Shown here: piece after piece, positions 20 through 59,569 of the stretch
How the letters are laid out: every line of letters begins with the position of its first letter
Numbering within the stretch: position 1 is the stretch's first letter
Assembly: GCF_004010195.1 (NCBI RefSeq)
Contig: NC_057718.1
Span: 5,019,106 to 5,083,105 of the forward strand
Source: Chiloscyllium plagiosum
Lineage: Eukaryota
Reading direction: 5' to 3'
Length of the DNA stretch: 64,000 nucleotides
Program-made: the position numbers and the translations under genes
Notes under the pieces: model-generated
Told to the model about the DNA's origin: nothing
What the model saw: only the letters and a program-made list of their open reading frames with translations
The model's database searches: none

Positions 20-316
20 ATTGTCTCGCTATCACCATTGTTAACAGCTAACCCAAGAATGCAACTTTTTTAAAAAAGGTTTGTGATTTACACATGAAAG
101 GAGTGAAACTATCACAGTATTCGAACAGATGAAAGTCTTAACAGACAATCAATTTTTCAATGTATAATTTCAGTTACATCACACTGTAAATTTTTGCTAT
201 CAATTCTGTGTGTTAGGATTGAGCCCTCCACTATCACCTGATGAAGGAGCGTCGCTCCGAAAGCTAGTGCTTCCAATTAAACCTGTTGGAGTATAACCTG
301 GTGTTGTGTGATTTTT
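20..316 (+). mobile_element. PLE-derived terminal repeat, family B, long version
   Basis: 3' part (gcttccaattaaacctgttggantataacctggtgttgtgtgattttt) recurs at 40625, 49735, 50220, 52587, 55517; contains the hammerhead motif. Left boundary uncertain. Confidence 0.65.
235..269 (+). ncRNA. Minimal type-I hammerhead ribozyme motif, family B (intact)
   Basis: CAC-CTGATGA-A-GGAGC-gtc-GCTCC-GAAA-GCTA-GTG: stem I CAC/GTG, core CUGAUGA, 5-bp stem II, GAAA, palindromic AGCU stem III, CUA triplet. Confidence 0.8.
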
Positions 317-403
317 ATCCTTGGAAGAGGCTTCGCAGTCAAGTTATAATCAACTTGGAGAAAATGAGTGTAGAAGGAGGAGGAGAACTTCTTCAGGGTA
401 GGC

Positions 404-497
404 ATCCTGATGAAGACCATATGCCCGAAACGTCGACTCTCCTGCTCCTAGGATGCTGCCTGACCGGCTGTGCTTTTCCAGCACCACATTCCTCGAC
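404..497 (+). mobile_element. PLE terminal repeat family A, solo copy (hammerhead stem II damaged)
   Basis: cctgatgaagaccatatgcccgaaacgtcgactctcctgctcc...gcttttccagcaccaca. Confidence 0.7.
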
Positions 498-1247
498 CCA
501 TGGGTCTCTCTGTTCCACAACCCTACCCAGGATGCTACCATTAATTGTAAATGTCCTGTCCTTGTTTGTACCAGTTCATGCTCCATACCCATATTTCTGA
601 TTTACATCCTAGTGAGATTCGAAATCAATGGCCCATTCTTACTTTTGCTAATCCCAGCTCTCTGCTGAGCTGCGTGTAATTTAATCTTTCATTGTCCTCA
701 TAGCCCACTCCCGGGTGTTAGTTGTTCCATATTTAAACCAACTGGATCCCTCAGTTAGATCCCAGACCTATAATATATTCACAGGCATTTAGTGCTCTAT
801 ATAGAGCTAACCCCTAGCCCCTGAACCCCTCAATTAGATACCAGTCTGCAATTCACTCTCATGTATTTGTTATTCCAATTATAAATGCTCCAGATGTCTT
901 GATTAGATTCCAGAGTGTAATTCATTCACACATATTTGATATGGTATATATTTAAAAACACCTCCCTGCTTGGATTCTGCAGCTCACTGCTGCCATCTGT
1001 TATTCTAGATATAAATCCCAAGCCACTCACTTCCCCAACAGTTCCATGAGAGTCCAGCTTAAATTCATCACAAAACAACAATTTGCATTCATATTACATA
1101 TTTAACATGGTAAATGTCCTGAGTTCATTCACTGGAGTCTTTTGAAACAGCGTGCGACAGTATGACACAATGTGCGATATGAGAATGAGTGATAAAACTC
1201 GGTGGGTATACAGGAGTGAATTTATAGGAGGAGACAGGTAGAAAATC

Positions 1248-1530
1248 TTAGAATCCCAAGCATGGAAACAGGCCCTTTGGCCCAAGATATCCACACCAAT
1301 CCTCCAAAGAGTAACCCACCCAGACCCATTCCCCTAGATTTACCCCTGACTAATGCACCTAAGCTACACATCCCTGAATACTGAGGGCAATTTGGCATGG
1401 CCAATTCACCTGACTTGCACAGACAAAGGGAGAATGTGCAAACTCCATTCAGACAGTCACTCAAGGCTGGAATTGAACACAGGTCCCTAGCTCTGTGAGA
1501 CAGCAGTGCTAACCACTGAGCCACCATGCC
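1248..1530 (-). mobile_element. HE1-type tRNA-derived V-SINE (internally deleted)
   Basis: Reverse complement of ggcatggtggctcagtggttagcactgctg... head, gagtttgcacattctccc core and CR1-like tail. Confidence 0.8.
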
Positions 1531-2247
1531 ATTTAAGGTTTAGGGACTGAATCCCTAAGATTTAAATTTCTATCATTCTCAGACATCCTCGAATGCCCCT
1601 TTGACCTGCAGGCAGCATTGAGCTTCCTCTTTCACAGAAGTTCCTGTTAGTATGTTGGTTTTTCAAAACTTCTGTTTTTTTTAACGGCAAATCAAGCTTT
1701 AATGTATTAAACCCCCCCAATATGTGCAAGTCTGACCAAAAACCATTGAGACTGAGACAGCTGGGAGTGGGCATGTCTGGATAGAGTGGACAGAAAAGAG
1801 TTCGAGAGAGAGAGAGGGAGATGTGATAGAGACAAATACAGAGACATTATGAACGGGTTTGCTTTTGAATAGGAATCCCTCTCGAAAATGGAACAATGGT
1901 ATCCAGGAAATAGAATTAGTAATGTCGCATGTAACATTTCTCTTTATTTTCACTGTACACAAATTCTGCTTCAGTGCTGTTTTAAAATCACCAAGGATGT
2001 TGTTTGCAAAACAGGTCAATTGTCACCTATCATAATATTCCCATGTTTTCACTTCAAAATATACCATTGGAACTGTTTGCAGTTCCCAGGGCTTTCACTG
2101 AAAAAATATAATGTTGCAAAGTTTCTTTTGCTAATCTACAGCAGTGTCACATGCCCAGGGCTCATGCACAGAAACTGACTGGAAAAGAATTTCATTTGAT
2201 TTCTTAGTCTGTCTGACAAAACAGACAATGTTTCCTGGCCAAAAGCA

Positions 2248-2860
2248 CCCTGTATTACTGACCATATCTCTACTGATGTTAATCAAGTTCCCTTACACTG
2301 TCACTCAGTGACCCCTCATCCCCCCAGTGCCCTGTGTTCCTGACTGTATTGCTACTGATGTTAATCCAGCTCCCTCACATTGTCACTCAGTAACCCGTCT
2401 CCCCCCAGTGCCCTGTGTTCTTGATTGTATCTCTACTGATGTTAATCCAGCTCCCTCACACTATCATTCAGTAACCCGCCTCCCCTAGCACCCTGTGTTA
2501 CTGACTGTATCTCTATTGATGTTAATCTAGCTCCCTCACACTGTCACTCAGTAACCCTTATGCCCCAGCACCCTGTGTTACTGACTGTATGTCAATTGAT
2601 GTTAATCTAGCTCCATTGCGCAGTCACTAAGTAGCCCTTCCCCCCAGCGCCCTGTGTTCCTCGTTGTATCTCCATTGATGTTAATCCAGCTCTCTCACAC
2701 TGTCTCTCAGTAACACTTATTCCCCAGTGCCCTATGTTATTGACTATCTCTACTGATGTTAATCTCGCTCTATTGTGCAGTCACTCAGTAACCCCTCTCC
2801 TCTCAGTGCATGTGTTACTGGCTATATCCCGACTGACGCTAATTTAGCTTTCTCATAGTA
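2248..2860. repeat. Minisatellite, ~80-bp unit, ~7.5 copies
   Basis: Unit ccctgtgttactgactgtatctctactgatgttaatccagctccctcacactgtcactcagtaacccc...cagtg starting at ~2248, 2330, 2411, 2491, 2571, 2650, 2730, 2809. Confidence 0.9.
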
Positions 2861-4565: not shown

Positions 4566-5396
4566 AATCCTGCTTTAATCGGAAGGCATTGCTGTCATTC
4601 AGGTTCTGAGTTCTGTTTGATGCAGTTCACAAAGACTCAGTATAAAGGCATGGGTCATTGCTTCAGGAGGTAGGTAAGAGATAGAAGTGGCTGCTCCCAC
4701 TCACTTCTGATGAGACCCAACTGAATAACATTTAATGAAGAACAATAATCTGGGTTTCCCATGTGGGTTCTGCAATCATCAGTGCCTCCTGTTGCCTTAG
4801 CACCCCTACTGTCATTTGGCACCTTACTGTTCCTGTTAACACCCTCTCTCAAATGATAGTTGAGAATTTAGGGTGAAAAGTCTGGAACTTGTGATAATTT
4901 GGAGAAACTTCCCTGGGGTCCACTCATAACACAGCTGTCATACTGAACCAGAGAGTTGCTGTTTGTATATGAAGAGGCCTATGTTGTATGCCTGGTTAAG
5001 GATACTCCTCAGTCACCTTAGATAAGGGCCATGTTATACACAGACAGACACACACACACAGATATGCACACATATGTGCGCGCACAAACATTTGACTATT
5101 TCCTAATCAAAAGTGAATTTCTTTCAAAGGACTCCTCCTAACTCCTGCCTCCTCCAGCCTCACTTCCAACAAAAAGTTTAATGAGTACTTGGGGCCACTT
5201 TTGTACTAAAAGTCACACCTTCCAATTAGCTGACACTGAAGTTGCCTCCATCTGAGCTCAGAAAGTGCAGCTTTCTCTCTCCTCATGCCCTGTCAGTGCC
5301 CACCATTACCTGCTGACCACTCTGCTTGACCCTATTAGCTCATATTGTTCCCAGGATCAAAAGCAGACACTAGCAATCCAACAATGCTCCAGGGTC

Positions 5397-5760
5397 TTAG
5401 ATTTAGATTACCTACAGTATGGAAACAGGCCCTTCAGCCCAACAAGTCCACACCGACCCGCCGAAGCGTAACCCACCCAGACCCCTACATTTACCCCTTT
5501 TAACCTAACACTACGGGCAATTTAGCATGGCCAATTCACCTGACCTGCACATCTTTGGACTGTGGGAGGAAACTGGAGCACCCGGAGGAAACCCACGCAG
5601 ACACGGGGAGAATGTGCAAACTCCACACAGTCAGTCGCCTGAGGCGGGAATTGAACCCGGGTCTCTGGCGCTGTGAGGCAGCAGTGCTAACCACTGTGCC
5701 ACTGTGCCGCCCACCCACTGTGCCACCGTGCCGCCCACCACTGTGCCACCGTGCCACCCA
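5397..5760 (-). mobile_element. HE1-type V-SINE, near full length, with tandemly reiterated 5' end
   Basis: Near-consensus SINE; ccactgtgccaccgtgccgcc repeated ~3x at 5691-5760. Confidence 0.9.
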
Positions 5761-8180: not shown

Positions 8181-8388
8181 TCAAAGAGTGTGGTGCTGGA
8201 AAAGCACAGCAGGTCAGGCAGCATCTGAGAAGCAGGAGAGTCGATGTTTCAGGCATAAGCTCTTCATCAGGATGCCCAAAACATCGACACTTCTGCTCCT
8301 CGGATGCTGCCTGACCTGCTGTGCGTTTCCAACACCACACTCTCGACTCTGATCGCCAGCACCTGCAGTCCTCACTTTCTCCTAGTTG
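8181..8388. mobile_element. Palindromic family A PLE mini-element with 13-bp TSD
   Basis: Inverted arms meeting at ~8270; TSD atttccctctgac at 8168-8180 and 8389-8401. Confidence 0.85.
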
Positions 8389-8509
8389 ATTTCCCTCTGA
8401 CAACAACTAGTAACCCCCAGATGCAATAATCAATGTCTCGATGTTTCAATTGTTTATTTCCACTGAATATATTCACGAAAGAGATTAATAAGTGTTTTGA
8501 TGTTTTAAA

Positions 8510-9860: not shown

Positions 9861-9899
9861 CAATCTTGATTCCCCAAAGCCTGTCTACCATCTACAAGG

Positions 9900-10102
9900 C
9901 TGAAAATGTGTTGCTGGAAAAGCGCAGCAGGTCAGGCAGCATCCAAGGAACAGGAGAATCGACGTTTCGGGCATAAGCCCTTCTTCAGGCTTATGCCCGA
10001 AACGTCGATTCTCCTGTTCCTTGGATGCTGCCTGACCTGCTGCGCTTTTCCAGCAACACATTTTCAGCTCTGATCGCCAGCATCTGCAGTCCTCACTTTC
10101 TC
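9900..10102. mobile_element. Young palindromic family A PLE mini-element with 15-bp TSD
   Basis: Essentially perfect inverted arms within 9899-10068, 34-nt one-sided tail, TSD ctaccatctacaagg at 9885-9899 and 10103-10117. Confidence 0.9.
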
Positions 10103-10297
10103 CTACCATCTACAAGGGACAAGTCAGGAGTGTAATGGAACACCTTCAACTTCTCCTCCGAGCCACACACCATCCCGGCTTGGAAATAAATCGTCATTCC
10201 TTCACTATCGCTGGGTCAAAATCCTGGAATTTCCCTCCCTAATGGCATTGTTGGTCTGCCTACAGCAGGTAGACTGCAGTGGTTCAAGAAGGCAGTT

Positions 10298-10370
10298 GAA
10301 ACTTTATTGCTGGAACAGCACAGCAGGTCAGGCAGCATCCAGGGAACAGGAGATTCGACGTTTCGGGCAC
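10298..10370 (-). mobile_element. Family A PLE repeat, truncated within the hammerhead
   Basis: gctggaacagcacagcaggtcaggcagcatcc...gacgtttcgggcac. Confidence 0.7.
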
Positions 10371-11810: not shown

Positions 11811-11846
11811 ATTCCTGAAGAAGGGCTTATGCCCGAAACGTCGATT
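11811..11846 (+). ncRNA. Minimal type-I hammerhead ribozyme motif, family A (intact core), within solo repeat 11811-11904
   Basis: ATTC-CTGAAGA-A-GGGC-ttat-GCCC-GAAA-CGTC-GATT; palindromic ACGU stem III, GUC triplet, predicted cut after 11842; stem I short. Confidence 0.8.
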
Positions 11847-12237
11847 CTCCTGTTCCTTGGATGCTGCCTGACCTGCAGCGCTTTTCCAGCAACACATTTT
11901 CAGCGCAGGAGTGTATCCTGTCAAGATACTCCTTCATGACCCACCATTGCTTTCTCTGAAATGGAGGGTGAGGGGAACCAGGCTGTGCTGCTGACAGTGG
12001 GGGAGGGTGCCTCTGCGAGGCAGGTTTACTCTGTCTCTGGTAGAGACCGAGGTTAGTGGGTTTCAGGTGTGGTCACCCTCACTGACAGCGCAGGGGCAAG
12101 GCTGATCTGCCCCCTTGCAGCACCTTCTCACTTGTCATTCAGGTCACCTCCCGGTATTGGTTTTGTATGTAAACCAACCAAAAATAACCAGAGAGTGTGG
12201 GTTGTTATTTGGTTAGTTTGATAGCTGGACTGAGCAG

Positions 12238-12429
12238 GTCAGGCAGCATCCGAGGAGCAGGAATATCGACATTTTGGGCAAAAGCCCTTCATCAGGGATT
12301 CTGATGAATGGCTTTTGCCTGAAACATCGATTTCCCTGCTCCTTGGATGCTGTCTGACCTGCTGTGCTTTTCCAGTACCACTCTAATCTTGACTCTAATT
12401 TCCAGCATCTGCAGTACCCACTTCTGCCC
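12238..12429. mobile_element. Palindromic family A PLE mini-element with 15-bp TSD
   Basis: Two decayed hammerhead cores head-to-head at ~12265-12332; TSD agctggactgagcag at 12223-12237 and 12430-12444. Confidence 0.85.
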
Positions 12430-15254: not shown

Positions 15255-15788
15255 TGTGTTGGAAAAACTCAGCAGGTCAGGCAACATCTGTGGAGAGAAA
15301 GCAGAATTTGGGCCCAGTGATCCTTCTTCAGAATGGTTCTTATTTCTTCTGGAGGAGGGTCACTAGAGTTGAAACATTAACTCTACTTTTTTAGATTAGA
15401 TTACTTACAGTGCGGAAACAGGCCCTTCGGCCCAACAAGTCTACACCAACTCGCCGAAGCGCAACCCACTCAGACCCATTCCCCCTACATTTACCCCTTC
15501 ACCTAACACTACGGGCAATTTTAGCATGGCCAATTCACCTGACCTGCACATTTTTGGATGGTGGGAAGAAACCGGAGTACCCGGAGGAAACCCACGCAGA
15601 CACTGGGAGAATGTGCAAACTCCACACAGAGAGTCGCCTGAGGTGGGAATTGAACCTGGGTCTCTGGCGCTATGAGGCAGCATTGCTAACCACTGTGCCA
15701 CCATGCTGCCCACAGATGCTGCCAGACCAGCTGACTTTCTCCCGCACTTTCTGTTTTTGTTTCTGATTTCCAGCATCCACAGCTCTTT
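15255..15788. mobile_element. Palindromic family C PLE repeat interrupted by an HE1 SINE
   Basis: Minus arm 15255-15335; plus arm ctggaggagggtcactagagttgaaacattaactct...[SINE]...ccacagatgctgccagacc...tttccagcatc. Confidence 0.7.
15391..15711 (-). mobile_element. HE1-type V-SINE, full length
   Basis: (GATTA)n tail at 15391, tRNA-like head at 15640-15711. Confidence 0.9.
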
Positions 15789-15957: not shown

Positions 15958-16125
15958 AGAAAAGAGCAGCATTGGAAAAGCACAGCAGGTCAGCAGCATA
16001 CGCAGAGCAGGAGAATCGATGTTTTGGGCATAAGCCCTTCATTTGGATGCTGCCTGACCCGCTGTGCTTTTCCAGCACCACACTTTTCAACTCTGACTGC
16101 AGCAGCTGCAGTCCTCACTTTCTCC
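15958..16125. mobile_element. Palindromic family A PLE mini-element (older)
   Basis: Inverted arms joined at ~16042; imperfect flanking repeat cccag(c)tacatg. Confidence 0.75.
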
Positions 16126-16720
16126 CAGTACATGAACGAGTATCCAAACTACCCATTAATAAGGCAATTTGTGCTGATAGTGTGAAATTACTCAATAATC
16201 TATTCACAGTGAACTCTTTGCGGCCTGGTATGTGGCTGCTTCTGCTGAGCGCCATCAGAAAAAATGAAACATTTCCCAAGAAAAGAGAAAGCTTACTGAT
16301 GATCCGATAGAGGTCTATCAAAGGATACAAGGCTTTGATCAGGGAAACGTAGAGGGAATGGTTTCACTGCTGGGCGAAAGACTAGCACTAGCAATGACTA
16401 TATAAGGTTGTGTTTGTGTTTCAGTTCATGCAGAGAATCTGAATTGTGTGGCAACATGCACTTTTACATCCATGTTACAGTAAGGAGGTATGGAGAGTGA
16501 TAGTGGAGACTCTCAATATTCTTCTGGGCTGGCCAGGAAGCTCTCCCAGTCTTCACTCCTGCCATGAGCTTGCATTGGCAGGCTTTGCATGTTAATGCTC
16601 CAACTGCTGGGCACCCTCTTGGGCCACCCAGTCCGAGGTAGGACTCAAACCCAGCGCTTCTGGCTCGGAGGTGAGGACACTACCCGCTGAACCACCTGAC
16701 CTCCTCCAAGTATCAGTCAG

Positions 16721-16826
16721 AGTTGAAAAGTGTGATGCTGGAAAAGCACAGCAGATCAGGCAATATCTGAGGAGCAGGAGAGTCAATGTTTCAGGTATAA
16801 GCTCTTGATCAGGAATGTGCAGTAAT
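16721..16826 (-). mobile_element. Family A PLE repeat, solo, with 14-bp TSD (1 mismatch)
   Basis: TSD caagtatcagtcag 16707-16720 / caagtatcaatcag 16827-16840. Confidence 0.75.
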
Positions 16827-24144: not shown

Positions 24145-24265
24145 TTCTTCAGAAGAGTCAGACTGGATTCAGAACATTGACTCTGTTTCTCTCTCTGTGG
24201 ATGCTGCCAGACCTGTTGAGTTTCTCCAGCACTCTGTTCTTTATTTCAGATGTTCAACGTCTGCT
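24145..24265 (+). mobile_element. Family C PLE repeat, decayed
   Basis: agaagagtcagactggattcagaacattgactctg...gatgctgccagacctgttgagtttctccagc. Confidence 0.6.
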
Positions 24266-27874: not shown

Positions 27875-28323
27875 TAGATTAGATTAGATTACTTACAGTG
27901 TGGAAACAGGCGGCCCAACAAGTCCACACCGACCTGCCGAAGCGCAACCCACCCAGACCCATTCTCCTACACTTACCCCTTCACCTAACACTACGGGCAA
28001 TTTAGCATGGCCATTCACCTAACCTGGAAGAGAAAATGAGGTCTGCAGATGCTGGAGATCAGAGATGGAAATGTGTTGCTGGAGAAGCGCAGCAGGTCAG
28101 GCAGCATCTAGGGAACAGGAGAATCGACGTTTCGGGCATTAGCCCTTCACCTAACCTGCACAGTTTTGGATTGTCGGAGGAAAGCAGAGCACCCGGAGGA
28201 AACCCATGCAGACACTGGGAGAATGTGCAAACTCCACACAATCAGTCGCCCGAAGTGGGAATTGAACCCGGGTCTCTGACGCTGCGAGGCAGCAGTGCTA
28301 ACCACTGTGCCACCGTGCCGCCC
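27875..28323 (-). mobile_element. HE1-type V-SINE interrupted by a family A insertion
   Basis: Consensus SINE split at 28027-28145. Confidence 0.9.
28027..28145 (-). mobile_element. Family A PLE repeat with 13-bp TSD inside an HE1 SINE
   Basis: TSD ttcacctaacctg at 28014-28026 and 28146-28158; 5'-truncated at the hammerhead core. Confidence 0.9.
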
Positions 28324-29444: not shown

Positions 29445-29550
29445 TAAGTTCTGAAGAAGAATCATTTTGGACTCAAAAATGTCAACGCTGTTTCTCTATT
29501 CACAGATACAGTCAGACCTACAGAGTTTCTCCAGCATTTTGATTTTGTTA
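29445..29550 (+). mobile_element. Family C PLE repeat, decayed
   Basis: agttctgaagaagaatcattttggactcaaaaatgtcaac...agtttctccagcattt. Confidence 0.6.
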
Positions 29551-33730: not shown

Positions 33731-34071
33731 ATAGAGTAATAGAGTCGTACAGCACAGAAACAGACCCTTCGGTCTAACTCGTCCATGCCAACCAGGTTTC
33801 TCAAATTGAACTAGTCCCATTTGCCTGCGTTTGGCCCACATCGCTCTGACATTTTTTAAAAAATGTGTTGTCACTGCCAGGCTTGGCTGCCCATCCCCAT
33901 TTTTCCCTTGAACTGACTGACATGGCCAAGGGAGCCAGAAGCTAATTAAGAGTCAGCCACATTGCTGTGGGTCAGGAGTCATGAGTCCAGGTAAGGATGG
34001 CACACCTCCCTCCCTAAGGGGCATCAGTGAACCAAATGCTCTTGGTAGACAGTGGTTACATGGTCATCGTT

Positions 34072-34120
34072 CCCTGGATGCTGCCTGACCTGCTGTGCTG
34101 TTCCAGCAATAAAGTTTCAA
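34072..34120 (+). mobile_element. Very short family A insertion with 7-bp TSD
   Basis: catcgtt at 34065-34071 and 34121-34127 flanking ccctggatgctgcctgacctgctgtgctgttccagcaataaagtttcaa. Confidence 0.65.
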
Positions 34121-36020: not shown

Positions 36021-36439
36021 CACATCAATAGGGAAAAACACCTTGAGTAGCAGTCACCTCTATGGTGTTCTTATGTTGCTCTTATCAATAAGAGACTGGG
36101 AAGAGGTAAATGGATAAAGCTGTAGTCATGTACCTTTGTCTGATTAAGCCTGGCTGTGTTTTCCACATTAAAAGAGCAATAAAAATCCACAAGGTTGTAG
36201 TGCAAAGGGGTATTTAGAACAGCTTGCATTGAAATGCAATGATAATGCATCGAAGTGAGTGAACAGTATGGAGTAACACTCACCACAGAGAGTGTTAAAC
36301 ATCTCCCAGTGTTCCTACCCAATGTGGTTTCAGCAGATGGGATGATACAGCTCAGGAGGAGCCACTGGGTGAATCATGTCTTACCATGATCCAGCCTGTT
36401 GCCCTGTTTTTTCAACATCTAATTTCCCTTTGAAAGGAA

Positions 36440-36572
36440 AACAAAGAGCTGTGGATGCCAGAAATCTGAAACAAAAACGGAAATAGCTGGAGAAACTTGG
36501 CAGGTCTGGCAGCCTCTGTGGAGGGAAAGCAGAATTAATATTTGGAGTCTAGTGACTAGTTCTGACGAACAG
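36440..36572 (-). mobile_element. Family C PLE repeat, decayed
   Basis: gctgtggatgccagaaatctgaaacaaaaacggaaatagctggagaaacttggcaggtctggcagc. Confidence 0.65.
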
Positions 36573-40500: not shown

Positions 40501-40629
40501 AAGTTCTTTCCTTTGCCATTCCTTATTTCCAGCCAAACTGATTCCACATCACTATCTCTAGCATCTATATCACTCCTCACTGCTGCACGATTATTGTCCT
40601 CTCTAACAACGCCTCCTTTTTCCCACAAC

Positions 40630-40664
40630 CACCTGATGAAGGAGCAGCGCTCCGAAAGCTAGTG
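40630..40664 (+). ncRNA. Minimal hammerhead motif, family B (intact), in solo repeat 40625-40750
   Basis: CAC-CTGATGA-A-GGAGC-agc-GCTCC-GAAA-GCTA-GTG. Confidence 0.8.
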
Positions 40665-41144
40665 CTTCCAATTAAACGTGTTGGACTACAACCTGGTGTT
40701 GTGTGATTTTTAACTTTGTACACCCCAGTCACACCAGCATCTCCAAATCAGCCCTTTTTCCTTTTCCTTTTTCCCTATTCTTCTGGAACATTGAGTACTG
40801 ACATCCCAATCTTTGTCATCCTGTAACCATGTCTCCATAATAGCTATCAAGTCATATGCATTTATTTCCATTGTTGCTGTCAATATCTTGTTATGAATGT
40901 ATTCAGTATTTGGATAAAGAACCTTAAGCTGTCTCTTTCTGGTTCCAGCTTCTGCTACACTCTTGTGTGTATTTTCCATCCCTTCCTGTTTTCCTTTGAT
41001 TATCGTTCGCCTCTTCACTAACCTGGACCTCTACTCTCTTCTTTCTTTGTTTTTAAACCTTCCCTTTGATTGAACACCTCCTGCCCCCACTAATTAGTTT
41101 CAAGCTCTATCTCCACCACTAGTTATACAATTCACCAGGACACA

Positions 41145-44045: not shown

Positions 44046-44296
44046 CAGGTCGTTCTGCTATGATGTGAGAAGCTGTGTTCCTCTTCAACCCTGCGCTGTA
44101 GAAGATCTCTCATAGAAAATTGCTAAAGCCGTTCAGTAGAAATTTTGCGTTATCCAAACAATACCCACAAGCGTCGATTCTCCTGCTGCTCGGAAGCTGC
44201 CTGACCTGTGCTTTTCCAGCACCACACTTTTCAACTCCAATATCCACAATTCACCAACTTACGCTGACAAAACCTGCATTATAGCAGAACGACCTG
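44046..44296. mobile_element. Tc1/mariner-superfamily (Tigger/pogo-like) MITE
   Basis: Perfect 16-bp TIRs caggtcgttctgctat (44046-44061) / atagcagaacgacctg (44281-44296), flanked by TA on both sides. Confidence 0.85.
44171..44237 (+). mobile_element. Family A PLE repeat inserted in the MITE, 12-bp TSD (1 mismatch)
   Basis: caatacccacaa 44159-44170 / caatatccacaa 44238-44249. Confidence 0.75.
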
Positions 44297-46810: not shown

Positions 46811-47389
46811 TGCAGTCACTTCCTGTAGTGTGGTTACTGGTTTCAGTGACAGTGAGCTTTGGAGAGTGTAATCGAGAATGTAGTTAAGGTTATCTTAAAA
46901 TGAGAGAAATGGCAAGGGTCAGGTTTGATTGTCGCACTGTAAACTCTGAGGGTAGTTAATGTGAAACAGCACTGCTTAGCAGATCAAATATTCCAAAGAT
47001 CTAATCTCCAACCAACCACCCTTCATAGTTGATGATTAATAAAGGAGTCCTAATTGTCTGGGCTGTCTCCAGGATAAAGCAGACTTGTATTTGCATAGTG
47101 GAAATATAACCTCCTTATTTTTATTGTATTTTACCCCTCTAAGTCTTAAAAATACCACCCAAGAAGTCCATTTGGATTATGTTTAACTCCACTTTCATAC
47201 ACTCTCACTGTCTCCTGCCATCACTCTGCATCATTCTAGGTATTCTTTTGTTCTCAGTCAGGGATATGAGCATCACTGGTTGGGTCAGCATTTATTGGAG
47301 AAAGTGCGGACTGCAGATGCTGGAGATCAGAGCTGAAAATGTGATGCTGGAAAAGCGCAGCAGGTCAGGCAGCATCCAAGGAGCAGGAG

Positions 47390-47425
47390 AATCGACGTTT
47401 CGGGCATGAGCCCTTCTTCAGGAAT
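47390..47425 (-). ncRNA. Minimal hammerhead motif, family A (intact core)
   Basis: Reverse complement: ATTC-CTGAAGA-A-GGGC-tcat-GCCC-GAAA-CGTC-GATT. Confidence 0.8.
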
Positions 47426-47431
47426 GAGCCC

Positions 47432-47467
47432 ATTCCTGAAGAAGGGGTCATGCCCGAAACGTCGATT
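47432..47467 (+). ncRNA. Minimal hammerhead motif, family A (one stem II change)
   Basis: ATTC-CTGAAGA-A-GGGg-tcat-GCCC-GAAA-CGTC-GATT. Confidence 0.7.
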
Positions 47468-48949
47468 CTCCTGCTCCTTGGATGCTGCCTGACCTGCTGT
47501 GCTTTTCCAGCAACACATTTTCAGGTCAGTATTTATTGTCCATCCTAATTGCCTTTGGTGGTGCTAAACCATCTTGTTGAACCATTGCAGTTCTTTGGGT
47601 GTACAAATATCCACAATGCCCTTGGGGGAGGGAGTTCCAGGATTTTGACCCAGCGATACTGAAGGAACGGCAGCATATTTCCAAGTCAGGATGGTGAGTG
47701 GCTCGGAGGGAAACTTGCAGAGTGTAGTGCTTCTTTCTAGATGGAAGTGGTTATAGGTTTGTAAGGGTTCTTTTACACTGTGATGAACAGGCTGTGGAGG
47801 TGTAGCCTGACTGCAGTCTAAATCTGTATTCACATACACAGATTTTCTCTAGTCCATTAGCATTATTCATTTTGAGATCATTCATTGGTAACTTATTCCA
47901 GGTCTCTGTTAACCTCTCTGTTATCTAATGTGGCCTCTCTTGTGTTTGCTTTATAATAAGAAATGGGTAGTGATGAACGAAACTAAGTTAAATATTTATA
48001 ACTGATGTAGATTCAGTGAGTGAACCTTCCAGAAAATGCCCAAAGTTTTGTCATGATGCTGAGTTTAACTGACTGCATCGGAAAGAATGGAGGGTTGCTT
48101 TTTGGTTTGGGCTGAATATTCACTGTTGGAGTTCTGTGGCTTGCTCCATTTTTCAGGTCCTGCACATGTTTTTGTCAGAAATGAGAAGGAGCTGTGCACA
48201 ATTTCAAGCCTTTTATTGCGGTAAACACAAGAGTTCACAATCCTGTGGGAAACATTTTCCAATTCATAACAGTTCAAGAGGTCTCCAGCTCAGAGGCAAT
48301 AGAGATTTGCATACGGAATTCAATTGCATCTGCTTCCTGAATTGGAACAGACTTGGGTCAGGTAGGTATGGTGTGTGTTTGATTTCAAGTCAGGCTCCAT
48401 TTACCCAGTCTCATCAAATGCTCAGGTCAGATGTGGCACAGAGGGAAAAAAAAAGTTGCATTTGCGAAGTAATCATCACAACCTCAGGATGCCCCCTTAT
48501 CACGTCAAGACCAGTTAACAGTTTGTTTTTGGAGATTCAGGAACCTAAGTATTTCTGAAACCAAAATAAAGCCACAATGTTCACTGTTTAAAATCAAACA
48601 ACTTTACCTTTAGAATGAAAGAACTTCAATATTCCTATTTTAAATAATTAATGTTAAAACAATAAATAGAGGGAGGCAATGATAACTGCATTGGACTAGA
48701 GATCCGGTCTAACGCAGACCTGCTGAGTTTCTCCAGCACTATGACAGCGTCAGTGGTGAGAGAAACCAAGTTTACATTTTGGTCTGATATGACTCATCAG
48801 ATCCCTTTCAGACTTGAAGCCCTGAGCTCAACATGTACATAGTTAGCGTCTTCAGTGTTCCTTAACACTTGCGACTGGCACTTTGGATCTCTCGCTCTCG
48901 CACTGTTCTTCACTCAGCTATCCAAGAAGTCCAACTCATTGCCAATAAA

Positions 48950-49062
48950 CACTGAAAGAACTGCAGATGCTGTCAATGGGAAACAAAAACAGAAGTTGCT
49001 GGAAAAGCTCAGCAGGTCTGGCAGCATCTGTGGAGAGAAATCAGAGTGACCCTTACTCAGGC
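48950..49062 (-). mobile_element. Family C PLE repeat (further fragments at 48715-48810)
   Basis: gaaagaactgcagatgctg...gttgctggaaaagctcagcaggtctggcagcatctgtggagagaaatcagagt. Confidence 0.7.
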
Positions 49063-49682: not shown

Positions 49683-49774
49683 GAGAAGAAATCATCTTCC
49701 AGAGAACCTAGTTTTCAAAAAGTGCATAGTTAGAAGTCACACGACACCAGATTATAGTCCAACATGTTTCAAAC

Positions 49775-50312
49775 AAATCTGTTGGACTATAACCTGATGG
49801 CATGCGACTTCTGACTTTGTCCTCCCCAGTCCAACACTGGCCCCTCCACATCAGGGCTACCTTTAAAAGGTACATCACCCCAACTTAAAGGGTACTTTTC
49901 CTACAAAACACCTGGGCCCTCACACTATCCATTCTTTACAGCCAGTGACGTTACGTTATAGGAATCATGACAACCAATTTGTTCACAGCAAGCTCCCACA
50001 GTGTGATAGCGACTTGATCATTCATTTTGCCTGATTTTAGTTGAGCTTTAAATATTGGGGAGGACATTGAGATGAAGTTCCTTTCTCCTCTTCAAAATAA
50101 ATACCTTTTCTGAAGGGCTCCCCAAGGAAACCAGAGTGATCACCAGTTTAAGATCCCTCTCTCTGGGTGCTTTGTGGGAAAAGTACCCTTTATGTTGGCG
50201 TGATGTACTTTTTAAAAGGTAGCCTTGATGTGGAGGGGCCGGTGTTGGACTGGGAAGGGCAAAGTCAGAAGGCACAACACCAGGTTATAGTCCAACAGGT
50301 TTATTTGAAACA
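49775..50312. repeat. ~140-bp inverted repeat (family B 3' end plus ~60 bp flank) around a ~250-bp spacer
   Basis: 49775-49915 vs reverse complement of 50165-50312. Confidence 0.8.
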
Positions 50313-50749: not shown

Positions 50750-51320
50750 CACCCCTCTCCTGATCAGTGTACCCCGTCCCTCCCACAACCCCCTCCCTCC
50801 CACAACCCCCTCTCCTGATCAGTGTACCCCCTCCCTCCCACAACCCCCTCTCCTGATCAGTGTACCCCCTCCCTCCCACAAACCCCCTCTCCTAATCAGT
50901 GTACCCCCTCCCTCCCACAACCCCCTCTCCTGGGCAGTGTAGCCCCTCCCTCCCACAACNNNNNNNNNNNNNNNNNNNNNNNNNNNNNNNNNNNNNNNNN
51001 NNNNNNNNNNNNNNNNNNNNNNNNNNNNNNNNNNNNNNNNNNNNNNNNNNNNNNNNNNNNNNNNNNNNNNNNNNNNNNNNNNNNNNNNNNNNNNNNNNNN
51101 NNNNNNNNNNNNNNNNNNNNNNNNNNNNNNNNNNNNNNNNNNNNNNNNNNNNNNNNNNNNNNNNNNNNNNNNNNNNNNNNNNNNNNNNNNNNNNNNNNNN
51201 NNNNNNNNNNNNNNNNNNNNNNNNNNNNNNNNNNNNNNNNNNNNNNNNNNNNNNNNNNNNNNNNNNNNNNNNNNNNNNNNNNNNNNNNNNNNNNNNNNNN
51301 CTCTTCTGGTCAGTGTGCTC
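50750..51320. repeat. C-rich minisatellite, ~38-bp unit, running into an assembly gap (50960-51300)
   Basis: Unit cccctctcctgatcagtgtaccccctccctcccacaac; related sequence resumes after the gap. Confidence 0.9.
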
Positions 51321-52487: not shown

Positions 52488-53378
52488 GATCATGTGCGGC
52501 TGTACAGGACATTGGTTAGACCATGTTTGGAATATTGTGTGCATTTCTGGTCTCCCTGCTATAGGAAGGATGTTGTGAAACTTGAATTGGTGGTGGACTG
52601 GGGTGGACAAAGTTACAAATCACACAACACCAGGTTATAGTCCAACAGGTTTATTTGGAGACAGAACCTATCGAGGCCCTGCCTCTTCCTGGTGAAGGAG
52701 CAGTGCTCTGAAAGCTGGTGCTTCCAAATAAACCTGTTGGACTATAACCTGGTGTTGTGTGATTTCTAACTCTGTGAAATTTGAAAAGGTTCAGAAAATG
52801 TTCACAAGGATGTTGCCAGGATTGAAGGGTTTGAGCTATAGGGAAAGGCTGAACAGGCTGGGACTATTTTCCCTGGAGTATCAGAGGCTGAGGGGTGACC
52901 TCATAGAGATTTATAAAATCATAAGGGTCATGGATAGAGTGAATAGCCAAGGTCTTTTTCCCCAGGATGGGCGAGTTGAAAACTCGAGGACATAGGTTTA
53001 AGATAAAAGGGGAAAGATTTAAGAGGTACTATGGGGCAACGTTTTCACGCAGAGGGTGGTATGGAATGAGCTGCCAGAGGAAGTGGTGGAGGCTGGTACA
53101 ATTACAGCATTTAAAAGACATCTGGATGGGTATATTAAGGATCGCTGGACTGGAAACATTAACTCTGATTTCTCTCCACAGATGCTGCCAGACCTGCTGA
53201 GCTTTTCCAACGGTTTCTCTTTTTGATGGATTTATAGCATCCGCGATTGTTTCGGTTTTTATTTCGAGTTTAGAGTGATGTGGGCTAAATGCTGGCAAAT
53301 GGGACTAGATTAATGTAGCATATCTGGTCAGCATGGACGAGTTGGACCGAAGGGTCTGTTTCTGTGCTGTGCATCTCT
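52488..53378 (+). mobile_element. CR1 (HER1-like) 3' end with family B (52587-52772) and family C (53138-53265) PLE insertions
   Basis: KMFTRMLPGLKGLSYRERLNRLGLFSLE..LRGDLIEIYK; family B insert flanked by tgtgaaacttgaa 52574-52586 / tgtgaaatttgaa 52773-52785. Confidence 0.85.
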
Positions 53379-54125: not shown

Positions 54126-54231
54126 AGTGAAGGATCTGTTTATTATATTGTGGCTTCACATTCCCTCTGTGAATTGGGCTGTTTGCTGGAATTGAGCAGG
54201 GTCTTTCAGCAGTTTGGAATCCAATCTCTCG

Positions 54232-54662: not shown

Positions 54663-55269
54663 ACATGGCTCCAACTAAATTTTCTGTGGGAAAACCCAGA
54701 CTGAGATTGTTTTGACGACACCTCCTCTCTCATCCACATCTTGCAGCCCTCGGTGACTGTAGAAAGAAAACAAAACGAGGTGCGAAGGTAGGAGGGAGCT
54801 GGGGGAAGATCTTGTCACTGCCACAACATTCTCGGGAAGCAAGCCAACAAAACCTGCTGTGACTTCTTGCCTGGGTGGTTTGTGTCAGAGCTCAGAGATG
54901 ATTTGAATATTCATTGCAAGCAGATTTTGCAAACATGCTCCTGTTCTGTTGGAACTGTCTGAGAACCTTAGAGCTTTAGTGAAATACACTTCAGGCCTAC
55001 AATGATGCTGGAAGTGCAAATGGATAACAGAACAGGGAAGACAGCAGAGTATCTACTAAACCAGTGAGTTGAAACAGCTGAAAAGTAAATGAGGGAAAGG
55101 CCAGGAAGGAGAGGGGATATGCACTAACGCTGCAGTGTTATGTTTTTATTTAAAAAAGAGTTCACAGATTGGCTTTTCACAGTGATTGCTTGATTTCATT
55201 GCAGAAAGCAGGAATTAAGAAACTGTGCAGACTGACACTCTTTCTCCAGGGGTTTTAAAACAGGAAATA

Positions 55270-55490
55270 TAAAACAAACAAACCGTGGTGCTGGAAGTCA
55301 GAAACAAAATAGAAATTGCAGGAAAAGCTCTGCAGGTCTGGCAGCCCCTGTGGAGAGAAATCAGAGTTAACGTTTCGGGTCTGATGACTCTTCCTCAGAA
55401 ACTCTGGATCTGAAACATTAAGTCTGATTTCTCTCCACAGGTGCTGCTGGGCCTGCTGAGCTTTCCCAGCAATGTCTATTTATGCTTTAA
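55270..55490. mobile_element. Palindromic family C PLE mini-element
   Basis: Long minus arm 55270-55400, shorter plus arm 55405-55480. Confidence 0.8.
55364..55404 (-). ncRNA. Minimal hammerhead motif, family C (best-preserved copy)
   Basis: Reverse complement: GAGTTt-CTGAGGA-A-GAGTC-atca-GACCC-GAAA-CGTT-AACTC; GUU triplet, one stem II mismatch. Confidence 0.65.
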
Positions 55491-55516
55491 GATAGGAGAC
55501 TGGGTAAATTCCTGGT

Positions 55517-55727
55517 TAAAAACCACACAACACCAGGTTATAATCCAACAGGTTTATTTGGAAGCATTAGCTTTCGGAGCGCTGCTCCTTCATTAGGACA
55601 CAACTACCTTATGAAGGAGCAGCGCTCCGACAGCTAGTGCTTCCAAATAAACCTGTTGGATTATAACCAGGATTTTGTGATTTTTAACTTTGTACACCCC
55701 CCAGTCCAACACAGCGTCTCCAAATCA
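55517..55727. mobile_element. Palindromic family B PLE mini-element with 12-bp TSD (1 mismatch)
   Basis: Two mutated hammerhead cores head-to-head at 55565-55640; TSD taaattcctggt 55505-55516 / tagattcctggt 55728-55739. Confidence 0.85.
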
Positions 55728-56139: not shown

Positions 56140-56442
56140 GAGGTGGCATGGTAGCACTACTGTTTCACAGCAGCAGAAACCCAGGTTCGATCCCAGCCTC
56201 TGGCAACTGTGTGTGGAGATTCTCCCCGTGTCTGCGTGGCTTTCCTCCCATAGTTCAAAGATGTGCAGGTTTAGTGGATTGGTCATGCTAAATTGCCCAT
56301 AGTGTTCAGGGATGTGCAGGCTGTGGGTTGTTAACCTTGGGAAATGCAGGGTTATAGGGGTAGGGCATACGGGTGTGTTGCTCTTCGGAGGGTCGGTATG
56401 GATTCGATGGGCCAAATGGCGAGCTTCCACACAGTAGGGATC
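56140..56442 (+). mobile_element. HE1-type V-SINE, decayed
   Basis: ccaggttcgatccc B-box, ttctccccgtgtctgcgtgg core. Confidence 0.75.
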
Positions 56443-56494
56443 CTGTGCTTTAACATAAAAGGCTGGAAATATCCTGCAGATCATCAGCATCTTT

Positions 56495-56815: not shown

Positions 56816-58140
56816 GTTTTTAGAAATAAAAAAATTAATGTTACAAAAACAGAAATTGTTGGAGCAACTCAGCAGGTCTGGCAGCCTCTGCAGGGAGAAA
56901 GCAGAGTTTACGTTTCAGGTTCAGTGATTTCATCAGAACTGCTGGGCGCTGGGAAATAGTGATATTTATTTATACTGAGGACAAGACTATGATTTCAAGG
57001 TGCTGGTGCATGCTGAGGACAAGGTTGGTGGTGAAGTGAGTAGGTAAGTGACTGGAGAGGTGTGCAGACAAATAAAGATGGAACCCAGACAGAGAGATAT
57101 GGAGGGGGGTGGGTAAACAAGGAGATAATGCAAAGGAAGCCAGGACCGAAGAAAAGCTGAGTAAGAGCTAAGAGCAGGAGAGAATGGGTAGGCTGTGCTA
57201 AAAGTAATCCATGTCTGAATAGGACTGGGTGTTGGGGTGGATAATAGACATGGAAAGATTGAGTCAGGCTTGACGTTATTTCAAGTTACTTCACCTGGAA
57301 GGTGTGTCTGGGACCTTGGATAGTGAAGAGGGTGGAAGTTAACAGGCAGATGTTGCACCTTCCGCAATTATGGGTGAAGGTATTGGGAGTGGAGGAAGAG
57401 TGAATTGGGGTGTTCTGGAGAGAATGGTCCCTGTGGAAGGTGGATAAGGGAGGGGAGGGGAATGTGTGTCACTGGAGGTGGCAGAAATGATGGCTTACAA
57501 TCCTTTGGATGTGGAGGCTGGTGTGGTGTTAGCTGAGGACCTGGGGACCGTATTGCTATTGTGGGAGGGAAGGGAAGGAGTGAGGGCAGAAGTGCATGAG
57601 ATGGCTCAGACCCAGCTGAGGGCCCTGTCAACCACAGTGCTGGGGAATCCTCGGTTGAGGAAAGAGGGGCACATTTCGGAGGTTCCCACGGCACCTTCCC
57701 CTGCAGCAGCAGAAGGTGTATCACTTGCCCATTTCCTTCCGCTTTCCTCACTATCCAAGGCCCCAGACATGCACCTTGCCTGTACATTGCTCAATCTAGT
57801 CTCCTGCATTCTCTGCTCAGAATGTGCTCTCCCCTACACTGGGGAAACGAGACATAGACTGGGCGGCTACTTTGCAGAACACCTACACTCTGTTGGTAGA
57901 AATAAGCCTAAGCTCCCTATTGCCTGCAACCCCTCCCCAGTCCGTGTACCCATCCCAACATCGCAGTCTCAGGCCTCCTGCAGTGTTCCACTGAGCCTCA
58001 GCACAAGCTCACAGAACAGAATCTCATTTTCCTCTTGGGGCCCCTGCAGCCTCTAGGACTCAACACTGAGTTCCAGAACTTTTCAGCCTGATTCCATCCT
58101 GCCATGTTTTGTCCCCAGCCCCAACACCTGGTCCTGTCAT

Positions 58141-58271
58141 CAGCCCTTTCCTGATGAAGGGCTTATGCCCGAAATGTCAGTTCTCCTGCTCCTCAGATGC
58201 TGCCTGACCTGCTTTGCTTTTTGAGCAGCACATTCTCAACTCTAATTTCCAGCATCTGCAATCCTCACTTT
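58141..58271 (+). mobile_element. Family A PLE repeat inserted into the family C PLE, 16-bp TSD (1 mismatch)
   Basis: cacctggtcctgtcat 58125-58140 / cacctggtcctgttat 58272-58287; core cctgatgaagggcttatgcccgaaatgtc. Confidence 0.85.
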
Positions 58272-58469
58272 CACCTGGTCCTGTTATGACATGGATTGTT
58301 GTCAGCACAGTCAGCCATTCTCACATCATCTTCAACCAATTATCACATTATATGGGGGCTTTCAGTACAGCTCACTCATTTTCTCCTACTCTCATTCTTA
58401 TTATCAATTATTCAGTCACTGCCAGTGCTGGCCTGCTTTCCATAATCTCCTTGTTTACCAACCCATTTC

Positions 58470-58528
58470 ATCTCTCGCTCTCGCGCTCTCTGTCTCGCTG
58501 TCACTCTCTTGCACTCTCTCTCGTTCTG

Positions 58529-58563
<35 letters not shown>

Positions 58564-58680
58564 TTCACTTTCTTTCTCTGCGTCTCCCTCCCATACGCTC
58601 TTTCTTTGTGTGTCTCACTCACACACTCATTCTCACCCTCTCTTTCTCTGTGCGTCTCTTGCTCTCACATTCTCACTCCC
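58470..58680. repeat. (CT)n/(CA)n compound microsatellite; other simple repeats at 37178-37200 (GA), 37346-37372 (TG), 39907-39939 (TG)
   Basis: Directly visible. Confidence 0.9.
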
Positions 58681-59569
58681 TAACCACCCATCTCACCTCT
58701 TTGTAACACCCCCTTTCCAAACTTTATCCTCAGCAGAAACACCAGTATTTCCTAACAGCTAATGGCAGTGATTGGGACCAGAACCAAGAGGGGCTCATTG
58801 ACGGTGAGATCCCTGGTTTTCCCAGGTTAACAGCCCCATTCAGGAAGCCTTAGCTGACAGGGGATTCAGAAAGTCAACTCAGTCTCAGGACTGGCTGTGA
58901 GCTGGGGGTCCGAGCCCATATACTGTGCACATGTAAGTAAAGGGTGACTTGGTGATGTGGTACCAGCCTCGGTGAAGTTATTTCCCCACAGTTCAGACTC
59001 ACTGTTGACTCTGCTTTCTCTCCACAGAGATTGCAAGACCTGCTGAGTTTCTCCAGCAACTTCTGTTTTTGTTTAGATCTCCAGCATGGGCAGTTCTTCA
59101 TTTTATTTTTAAGTTAATATTACTTTAAGTTTACCATTAGAAAAGCAGTTGGTTTGGATAAAAGTTTTCAAATTTTAAATTTCCGAAGAGAAGGTTCACA
59201 AAGTGAAAGAATGAGATTTCACGTTTAGAATTGTTTGCTGTCTGGACTGGAAAGACTGACAGTCTTTGACAATGAAGATGTTGGTAAAGTGGTACTTCCA
59301 CAGTTGATTACTGGATTTGACTTCCCGGGCGAGATTAATTGCCACGTACTGAAATGCATGAGCTTCCTGCAAAACACAGGAAGCTTCAGGATAAGATGTC
59401 ACTTTTACAAAGTTAGTGGTATAACAGGGAAAATCTTGCACCAGATTGTGGTCTTTCAGAGTTTATTGCAACATCTCCTTTCTATGAATTGCACACTAAC
59501 TAATATCCGTAACAACCATTTACATGTTGAAAAAATTCAACAAAAGTATGACACGTGTCACAAGATAAG

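Follow-up and report, generated by a model that had tools for sequence, protein, structure and literature searches.

The closest described counterparts of the repeats studied here are the hammerhead ribozymes (HHRs) of Penelope-like elements (PLEs), and the repeats themselves lie in a 64,000-nucleotide (nt) stretch of the genome of the shark Chiloscyllium plagiosum (assembly GCF_004010195.1, contig NC_057718.1, positions 5,019,106–5,083,105), hereafter called the window. Cervera and de la Pena (2014) described minimal HHRs (min-HHRs) in PLEs and named as their marks, which came out in addition to the search descriptor of that study, an extra nucleotide, a G10.1–C11.1 pair, palindromic positions 15.2–16.2, and covariation; most published copies are single or form close opposite-strand pairs, attributed to truncated PLEs (PMC4209133), and the same holds here. 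The hallmarks of endonuclease-bearing (EN+) PLEs are a combination of reverse transcriptase (RT) and GIY-YIG endonuclease (EN), heavy 5′ truncation, an inverted 5′-truncated neighbor, a one-sided tail of 30–40 bp, and an HHR near the 3′ end (PMC8557442). For PAc, the Poseidon PLE of Anolis carolinensis, Frangieh et al. (2024) reported a tail bounded by two RT start sites, cutting and extension of both strands, and HHR cleavage that depends on C3 and G8 (PMC11167929). Retrozyme-type hammerheads show a dimer-dependent activity that relies on a weak palindromic stem III (PMC6155905; Li et al. 2026 preprint).

The repeats in the window are in all likelihood PLE tails that carry a true min-HHR motif, and it is highly probable that they arose as dead-on-arrival, strongly 5′-truncated insertions of EN+ PLEs, of which the window has three families (A, B, and C) and the genome no fewer than four. 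An initial annotation, made from the letters of the window, had described about 30 short repeats in three families sharing one catalytic layout. Here, we analyzed the window and a larger sample of 288,240 nt, which consisted of the window, eight loci anchored on a family A 30-mer, and 20 arbitrary 10-kb pieces, so that in total 0.3 Mb of a 3.56-Gb genome was covered. Repeat copies (arms) were counted by blastn against one reference arm per family, which gives arm ends that are accurate to a few nucleotides. For the motif itself we used a strict descriptor that demands both core boxes, a bulge of 0–1 nt, a perfect stem II of at least 4 bp, GAAA, pairable positions 15.2/16.2, U16.1, and H17, as well as a loose pattern, CTGANGA..GAAAC; 100 dinucleotide shuffles of the window served as a control for the former and 100 shuffles for the latter.

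The strict descriptor matched six times in the window and not once in the 100 shuffles, and over the 288-kb sample it gave 30 matches, each with a 1-nt bulge. With the loose pattern, 12 matches were obtained in the window, compared with a shuffle mean of 0.67 and a maximum of 3. The motifs in the window are not a product of chance. Inspection of the sequence at each of the six sites named in the initial annotation showed that all six bear the described motif (Table 1). The three repeat families are also real, but the count rose from about 30 to 40 arms, comprising 20 of family A, nine of family B, and 11 of family C, with one overlap between A and C at 24173–24250. The shared catalytic layout is a property of the families and not of the individual copies, since 29 of the 40 arms do not have both core boxes. 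Truncation stops 22 arms short of the motif, in seven the core is broken, five keep the core with an imperfect stem II or III, and six are intact (B at 228 and 40623; A at 9989(−), 11811, 47428(−), and 58148); in other words, 18 arms reach the motif and 11 retain both core boxes. The estimate of roughly one repeat per 2 kb lies between the density of the window (one arm per 1.6 kb) and that of a 191-kb arbitrary sample (one per 3.4 kb).

The larger sample revealed a fourth family, D, which had been missed and has no copy in the window. Its consensus is CUGA(G/U)GA-U-GUC(A/G)CCU-loop-AGGGGAC-GAAA-CG-UU, and it was found at 4636–4920 of locus L028 and at 1498–1617 of locus L027; it has 7,783 intact genomic copies in two subtypes. 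For comparison of the stems, the motifs were parsed outward from the core boxes; a MAFFT alignment of 37 distinct motif regions had moved family B by one column. In representatives of all four families, the two core boxes, CUGANGA and GAAA, follow the type-I order, position 16.1 is U, and H17 is not G (C in family A, A in family B, U in families C and D). Between A9 and position 10.1 there is one unpaired nucleotide, which is U in family D and A in the other three. The 10.1–11.1 pair is G–C in all four families, and the next three pairs vary in type from family to family. Stem II, which is 4, 5, 5, and 7 bp long in A, B, C, and D, respectively, pairs in every family, with one mismatch in D. 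None of the families has a stem III of its own; positions 15.2–16.2 are palindromic, flanked by A15.1 and U16.1, in all four. As stated in the initial annotation, GAAA is followed by a palindromic tetramer, ACGU in A and C and AGCU in B, and family D has ACGU as well. That stems I and II differ between families and yet pair within each is borne out for stem II, whereas stem I amounts to merely 2–4 bp: C–G, U–A, then U·U, then A–U in family A, CAC/GUG in family B, and up to AGUU/AACU in family C. The apparently long stem I of the family C copy at 55365–55398 comes from its inverted partner arm. Cleavage would be predicted after GUC in A, after CUA in B, and after GUU in C.

Two checks that had been proposed for this motif could be run on the sequence, and both came out in its favor. 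When cores were compared with flanks, the 11 fixed core letters were identical in the representatives of A–D, with loops varying around a fixed core in A, B, and C, whereas the flanks resembled each other at shuffle level: the identity of the downstream 60 nt between families was 0.50–0.57, against a shuffle 95th percentile of 0.58–0.60. The exception is A–C, with a downstream identity of 0.67 against a 95th percentile of 0.62; A and C share a downstream module, and B and D do not. In the search for covariation, the types of the stem II pairs differed among the four families, and a compensated stem II subfamily was found within A; stem I is too short for such a test. Genome counts for family A were 126,899 for GGGC/GCCC, 2,826 for GAGC/GCCC, 2,486 for GGGC/GCUC, and 1,865 for GAGC/GCUC. 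The doubly changed form would be expected about 55 times if the two changes were independent, which means a 34-fold excess. Among the 100 matches listed, these doubles mostly have one N7/loop combination, and they therefore count as one amplified subfamily and a single compensatory event. One further feature of the family A sequence concerns its short 3′ end, UUUUCAG, which can pair at seven positions with the core box CUGAAGA, giving a predicted panhandle fold of the short arm, as at 11815–11904 and in other CUGAAGA copies of family A. Subfamilies with CUGAUGA have different 3′ ends, and the panhandle pairing may be a chance feature.

Each family is a short unit that starts sharply just upstream of the motif and extends about 65–100 nt past it, so that the arms correspond to the final ~95–135 nt of an element. 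Family A has 3′ ends of two classes, a short one that ends at ...CACAUUUUCAGC and a long one that adds about 36 nt; family B has the same two classes with an extension of about 37 nt. The 5′ ends pile up in front of the motif: 27 of 48 unbiased family A arms begin 0–7 nt upstream of the CUGA box, family B arms accumulate 8–10 nt before CUGA, and family C arms about 2 nt before it.

An arrangement not mentioned in the initial annotation is that about half of the arms lie in inverted, head-to-head (5′-to-5′) pairs. The 288,240-nt sample contains 119 arms with 27 such pairs (54 paired and 65 solo arms), and among 55 pairs of adjacent arms that are at most 1 kb apart, 32 are head to head, 11 on the same strand, and 12 tail to tail. 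Target-site duplications flank whole pairs and, read by eye, are about 9–15 nt long, with one of about 25 nt; by script, a shared flank word of at least 9 nt was found for nine of 18 pairs and in one of 200 control pairings. One tailed and one short arm were present in 12 of 13 resolved A pairs (the remaining pair being short and short) and in four of five B pairs, which were read by eye as the script threshold miscalled old B copies, and of which the remaining one looks long and long. This asymmetry, seen in 16 of 18 resolved pairs overall, has P ~1e-4 given the frequencies in solo arms. Each twin is a single insertion event in which the short and the tailed end are used once each. The inner ends of the arms vary, with starts from q24 to q74. 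The junction of the pair at 9899–10110 (9964–9998), which lies inside stem II, was counted 825 times in exact form, scattered over the genome and with a copy in locus L004. This recurrence means either that the whole pair was amplified or that cDNAs are preferentially joined at this place, with 2–3 nt of microhomology. Of 17 adjacent −/+ pairs in family D, 15 have one subtype on both arms (subtype sharing in D and loop sharing in B were read by eye among the 100 matches listed).

A snap-back origin of the twins, i.e., a self-primed hairpin, was considered and rejected as a general explanation. In pairs such as 9899–10110, the inner-truncated arm has the longer outer end, which could not have been copied from the partner. 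Snap-back may explain the inverted piece at 27347–27430, which, unlike the usual twins, has no 3′ end of its own. This piece is part of a near-perfect palindrome of about 160 nt at 27347–27506. The highest Rfam score of the window comes from it, 49.8 bits with the model of plant MIR2118, whose cut-off is 85; the right arm of the palindrome matches PLE 3′ sequence that stands upstream of family A in locus L032. The head-to-head pairs likewise draw microRNA-precursor models of Rfam at sub-threshold scores, and to covariance models they resemble microRNA precursors; the pair at 47298–47527, taken as one transcript, has a predicted hairpin of about 107 bp with −198 kcal/mol.

The attribution to PLEs that had been made for the window holds, in that family A arms continue upstream into remnants of RT/GIY-YIG coding sequence. 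Used as a genome query, the upstream piece of A arms gave 40 full-length matches among 843 candidates. In locus L032, a block with the RT signature YIDD and an EN-like block stand directly upstream of an A arm, and of 410 candidates, 162 are relatives of the coding fragment of this locus at E ≤ 0.001, the best of them being 84% identical and annotated in sharks and rays. The precomputed domains of these relatives are RVT_1, PF28514, and PF26215, with GIY-YIG in 16 of the 120 relatives listed; several of the matches listed combine RVT_1, PF28514, GIY-YIG, and PF26215. One such protein, used as a genome query, gave 73 strong matches from 125,815 first-look candidates, some of them free of stops, and a genome search with the Pfam GIY-YIG family gave one weak match among the 150 of 14,403 candidates that were scored. 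In three of six loci with a match to the open reading frame (ORF), an A-type motif lies downstream on the same strand, with a partial arm in a fourth, and four of the six have an inverted arm upstream of the ORF. Units in which an ORF is flanked by two pseudo-long terminal repeats (pLTRs) were not found in these six loci or in one candidate locus. The marks of EN+ PLEs that are present are the RT and GIY-YIG ORF, the inverted 5′-truncated neighbor, and the one-sided tail of about 36 nt in A and about 37 nt in B.

The initial annotation had further proposed a very large, partly young population of several families, and the genome counts agree. The exact family A 30-mer has 30,936 genomic copies, and patterns for intact motifs gave 126,899 plus 1,865 copies of A, 17,087 of B, 355 of C, and 7,783 of D, or about 154,000 in total, with reversed patterns, which served as a control, all giving 0. 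In the arbitrary 191 kb there are 57 arms, which corresponds to 0.30 per kb and 3.0% of bases and extrapolates to about one million arms; nine of the 57 are intact, which extrapolates to about 167,000 and is consistent with the pattern counts. Of the window, about 6% consists of PLE tail pieces. Part of the population is young, since many arms are 98–100% alike and some ORFs are open; family C is old, at 73–90% identity. ORF-based or Rfam-based tracks miss these repeats, as had been foreseen for an ORF track. Family A was also found at 99% identity or more in 1,806 contig records of a sequencing run labeled as another organism, and repeat words occur in runs of four organism labels, which means either that family A is shared between species or that these lineages evolve very slowly.

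Taken as tails of EN+ PLEs, the repeats could have formed as follows. Each insertion would retain the last ~95–135 nt of the element RNA, namely the min-HHR and about 65–100 nt up to the place where RT starts, and two such places about 36 nt apart would account for the two classes of 3′ end, short and tailed. Around half of the insertions are twins of one event, lying head to head within one target-site duplication. As suggested by the in vitro work on PAc, both nicked DNA strands would prime cDNA synthesis, each 3′-OH at one of the two internal start sites; synthesis would in most cases halt a short way past the copied hammerhead, after which the two cDNAs would be joined. The PAc enzyme cuts and extends both strands and would thus yield head-to-head twins (PMC11167929). 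Both the priming on two strands, by analogy with PAc, and catalysis are steps that we infer. The hammerhead in the relics would be an inert passenger; in the source RNA, an active core would form only together with a second copy, through the ACGU or AGCU palindrome. Because the usual genomic partner is antisense and not sense, cleavage, if any, would need two RNAs or rare tandem loci.

A number of observations weigh against reading the repeats as PLE tails with a true min-HHR. The Rfam hammerhead models, run within all 4,227 families, had no match at gathering score in the window, and no hammerhead was found at E ≤ 10 in the window or in 101-nt pieces around one A and one B motif; RF00163 (Hammerhead_1), which had been proposed as a check, did not match in the window at any threshold. 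Stem I is short, most individual copies are ruins, and only two of 48 family A arms begin at the predicted cut. For a predicted dimer of two A motifs, another pairing (−32.5 kcal/mol, compared with −29.0 for two monomers) was obtained, and the hammerhead dimer is not the structure of minimum free energy. Same-family, same-strand neighbors within 1 kb account for three of 55 adjacent pairs, none of which is an array or a head-to-tail unit. On the coding side, two adjacent ORFs in locus L028 match GIY-YIG at 20.5 and 18.5 bits, below the Pfam cut-off of 22.6, and the L032 fragments matched no Pfam family in a Pfam search. None of the six ORF loci has a direct arm upstream within the ~1.5 kb covered, part of which reads N, and a candidate with direct arms 3.8 kb apart, considered as a pLTR unit, proved to consist of separate insertions. 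The Rfam result is uninformative because the hammerhead models expect stem III, which is absent from min-HHRs; it lowers the case for membership in those Rfam families, not for a hammerhead-like mode of working.

RNA data were used to assess whether the motif is cleaved. In one raw polyA single-cell RNA run, 1,922 reads aligned at 92% or more, all on repeat arms and on both strands; a second run of this type had no reads on the stretch. Since 98% of the aligned reads continue into unlike sequence, they stem from other copies inside transcripts. Reads also extend upstream of the A arm, with 148 at 11811. The repeats are thus present in RNA. No site at which many RNA molecules start or end was seen in the 1,922 reads, which again counts against a working hammerhead, although a polyA library is ill-suited to 5′-OH ends. 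Differences of the types A>G and T>C between the reads and the reference were not attributed to RNA editing, because contig runs X1 and X2 show them too and because they are compatible with decay of CpG sites in the reference copy. Appreciable self-cleavage in vivo is possible, but we would sooner expect that it does not take place.

The explanation that comes closest to competing is that the motif is a conserved structural signal of PLE RNA that is not kept for self-cleavage, serving instead, for example, in protein binding, in palindrome pairing, or as the place where cDNAs are joined. We regard this as rather unlikely, but it accounts for several facts. The 5′ ends pile up upstream of the motif and not at the cut, in A as in B and C, the 825-fold exact head-to-head junction lies inside stem II, no read ends at the cut site, stem I is tiny, and no partner in cis was found. 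The literature on other PLEs points in the same direction, as PAc core mutants insert like wild type in vitro and no RNA-seq reads are reported to end at the PAc cut (PMC11167929), Naiad PLEs thrive without canonical HHRs (PMC8557442), and metazoan min-HHRs cleave poorly in vitro (PMC4209133). However, all 11 core letters that the chemistry requires are invariant in the four families even though the flanks resemble each other no more than shuffled sequence does, H17 is never G, and G10.1–C11.1 and the palindromic 15.2–16.2 are kept, and a pure structure would not need exactly such a core. In addition, constructs of PAc and of S. mansoni do cleave, and plant and fungal PLEs have canonical active hammerheads (PMC11167929, PMC8557442, PMC4209133).

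A more speculative reading, which we consider doubtful, is that the motif works at the step of DNA synthesis, either in addition to RNA cutting or in its place. The stem II hairpin and the palindromes would then show where the preferred template ends or where the two cDNAs of a coordinated insertion on both strands anneal. What suggests this is that in the three window families insertions most often begin a little upstream of the motif and almost never at the cut, that twins join at or inside the motif, with one exact junction recurring 825 times, that 15 of 17 adjacent D pairs share a subtype, and that each RT site is used once in 16 of 18 pairs. If it is true, hundreds of thousands of shark insertions are a natural record of the still unsolved mechanism of PLE integration.

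It is very improbable that we are dealing with non-LTR retrozymes, in which small tandem units, themselves non-autonomous, spread through circular RNAs excised by the hammerhead. Most arms are indeed short and non-coding, none of 25 B arms (the reference excepted) passes 10 nt upstream of the motif, and Li, Clavereau, and Pollet (2026 preprint) describe non-LTR retrozymes tied to PLE pLTRs in one cartilaginous fish. Yet there are no tandem arrays and no head-to-tail unit among the few same-strand neighbors described above, the motif lacks helix III and loop contacts, and the units terminate where RT starts instead of at the cut. Even less credit is due to the idea that the pairs are DNA transposons of the foldback type or miniature inverted-repeat transposable elements (MITEs), with terminal inverted repeats of about 100 bp and an incidental likeness to hammerheads. 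Inverted arms of about 100 bp, target duplications at both flanks, near-perfect RNA hairpins, and sub-threshold scores with microRNA-precursor models would fit, but the inner ends vary (q24 to q74), the outer ends of 16 of 18 pairs are unequal by 36 nt, solo arms outnumber paired ones (65 vs 54), the duplications range from about 9 to about 25 nt and so have no fixed length, and longer copies run into the RT/EN ORF; in our view, the variable ends, the unfixed duplication length, and the link to the ORF refute it. Finally, a chance or compositional likeness in the tail of an ordinary short or long interspersed element (SINE or LINE) has next to nothing in its favor, as the absence of an Rfam match and the smallness of the 11-letter core are contradicted by the six strict matches against none in 100 shuffles, the same layout in four families with unrelated flanks, the compensatory stem II subfamily, and the link to a PLE ORF.

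The arms and pairs of the window are listed in Table 1 together with other repeats, of which the one with the tRNA-like box is probably a tRNA-derived SINE unrelated to the hammerhead families.

Table 1. Repeat arms, head-to-head pairs, and other repeats in the window (positions counted from its first letter)
Positions	Strand	Family	Feature	Details
228..323	+	B	solo arm, short 3′ end	intact min-HHR 238-270 (CUGAUGA-A-GGAGC-GUC-GCUCC-GAAA-GC-UA)
405..490	+	A	solo arm	core boxes kept, stem II imperfect (407-438)
8189..8381		A	head-to-head pair	(−) 8272 to 8189, short end; (+) 8272 to 8381, tailed, 5′-truncated inside motif
9899..10110		A	young head-to-head pair, 96-99% to reference	13-nt target duplication TACCATCTACAAG on both sides; (−) intact min-HHR 9957-9988, short end; (+) begins inside stem II, 36-nt tail
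10294..10369	−	A	solo arm	5′-truncated inside motif
11811..11904	+	A	solo arm (98%), short 3′ end	intact min-HHR 11815-11846, predicted cut after 11842
12233..12423		A	older head-to-head pair	(+) arm retains core 12301-12332 and tail
15261..15780		C	two fragments	motif not reached; 15308 to 15261 (−), 15710 to 15780 (+)
15973..16124		A	head-to-head pair	both arms truncated before or inside motif; (+) tailed
16717..16817	−	A	solo arm	core broken
24173..24250	+	C	fragment (also scored A)	shared downstream module only
~27440-27748	+	A	longer copy	core broken; first ~70-80 nt repeated inverted at 27347-27430
28025..28148	−	A	solo arm (94%), tailed	5′-truncated at CUGA box
29449..29549	+	C	solo arm	core broken
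34069..34119	+	A	fragment	downstream module only
36438..36557	−	C	solo arm	truncated inside motif
40623..40752	+	B	solo arm, tailed	intact min-HHR 40633-40665
44169..44246	+	A	fragment	begins near predicted cleavage site
47298..47527		A	young head-to-head pair	~14 nt target duplication; (−) intact min-HHR 47390-47421, tailed; (+) one stem II mismatch 47436-47467, short end
48980..49047	−	C	fragment	
49722..49854		B	head-to-head pair	both arms truncated past motif; (−) short, (+) tailed
50226..50310	−	B	fragment, tailed	
52588..52775		B	head-to-head pair	core broken; (−) partial tail, (+) short
53153..53223	+	C	fragment	
55261..55481		C	head-to-head pair	(−) keeps both core boxes 55365-55398 (CUGAGGA-A-GAGUC-AUCA-GACCC-GAAA-CG-UU), one A·C stem II mismatch
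55515..55727		B	head-to-head pair	cores broken (CUAAUGA, CUUAUGA); 9-10 nt target duplication; (−) short, (+) tailed
56846..56920	−	C	fragment	
58148..58272	+	A	solo arm, tailed	min-HHR 58151-58182 intact by descriptor (GAAA-UG-UC, G·U at 15.2/16.2)
59004..59086	+	C	fragment	
11815-11846 (+), 47390-47421 (−), 47436-47467 (+)		A	motif sites named in the initial annotation	
238-270 (+), 40633-40665 (+)		B	motif sites named in the initial annotation	
55365-55398 (−)		C	motif site named in the initial annotation	
17884-17945, 34278-34339, 46327-46388, 56152-56213, 60185-60246, 63100-63161			other repeat with tRNA-like box	box ..GGTTCGATTCC..
5403-5712, 15396-15711, 27879-28323, 39205-39518, 63351-63644			~300-nt repeat family	5-8 copies
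2237-2829			tandem array	~80-nt units, 7 copies
50734-50980			tandem array	~38-nt C-rich units, then N block

Since the class is known, the main value of these observations is annotation. The twins are built regularly: just one of the two arms has the tail, target duplications enclose the pair as a whole, and the 5′ ends accumulate at the motif. This also makes them a very large natural data set for testing models of PLE integration, and natural twins could be used to test whether the hammerhead matters for this process. Beyond the retrozyme preprint cited above, our literature search found no work on hammerheads in cartilaginous fishes, and shark genome papers, so far as their accessible text goes, list Penelope without ribozymes.

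Compared with non-LTR retrozymes, newt satellite 2, and Schistosoma Sm-alpha, the shark repeats are alike in having type-I hammerheads tied to retroelements of the PLE type (PMC6155905; Li et al. 2026 preprint). The reported retrozyme-type systems consist of tandem or SINE-like units with a remnant of stem III, loop–loop contacts, and in some cases circular RNAs (PMC6155905; Li et al. 2026), whereas the shark arms have no tandems, no stem III, and no loop 1. With the EN+ PLEs of Craig, Yushenova, Rodriguez, and Arkhipova (2021), they share truncation, the inverted copy, and the one-sided tail; they differ in that partial tandems (pLTRs) were not seen in seven shark loci and in that an extreme truncation class, an arm of about 100 nt starting at the motif, dominates in the shark (PMC8557442). 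PAc and the shark elements both have a hammerhead about 70–110 nt upstream of the insertion ends, and both have two RT start sites 30–40 nt apart with an optional tail (PMC11167929). The PAc ORF starts inside stem II (PMC11167929), whereas the shark motif stands downstream of the ORF in loci L032, L036, L037, and L039, and a reading from the AUG in CUGAUGA, followed by eye, meets a stop after 17 codons. In vitro, the choice of RT start site by PAc is the same for both strands (PMC11167929), whereas the shark twins use each site once in 16 of 18 pairs.

The closest match is to the metazoan PLE min-HHRs of the 2014 study, with which the shark motifs have in common the CUGANGA and GAAA cores, the unpaired base between 9 and 10.1, G10.1–C11.1, the palindrome, the absence of stem III, and a short stem I, as well as the presence of several families per genome with compensatory changes (PMC4209133). 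Stem II is 4–5 bp long in A, B, and C compared with 7–8 bp in Schistosoma (PMC4209133). The kind of motif has been known since 2014, and what is new is the host and the scale: no shark, ray, or chimaera was found in the searched text and two searched supplements of that study, and the roughly 154,000 intact shark motifs compare with about 4,000 in coelacanth and 9,000 in Xenopus, that is, over tenfold the figures that the authors called remarkable (PMC4209133).

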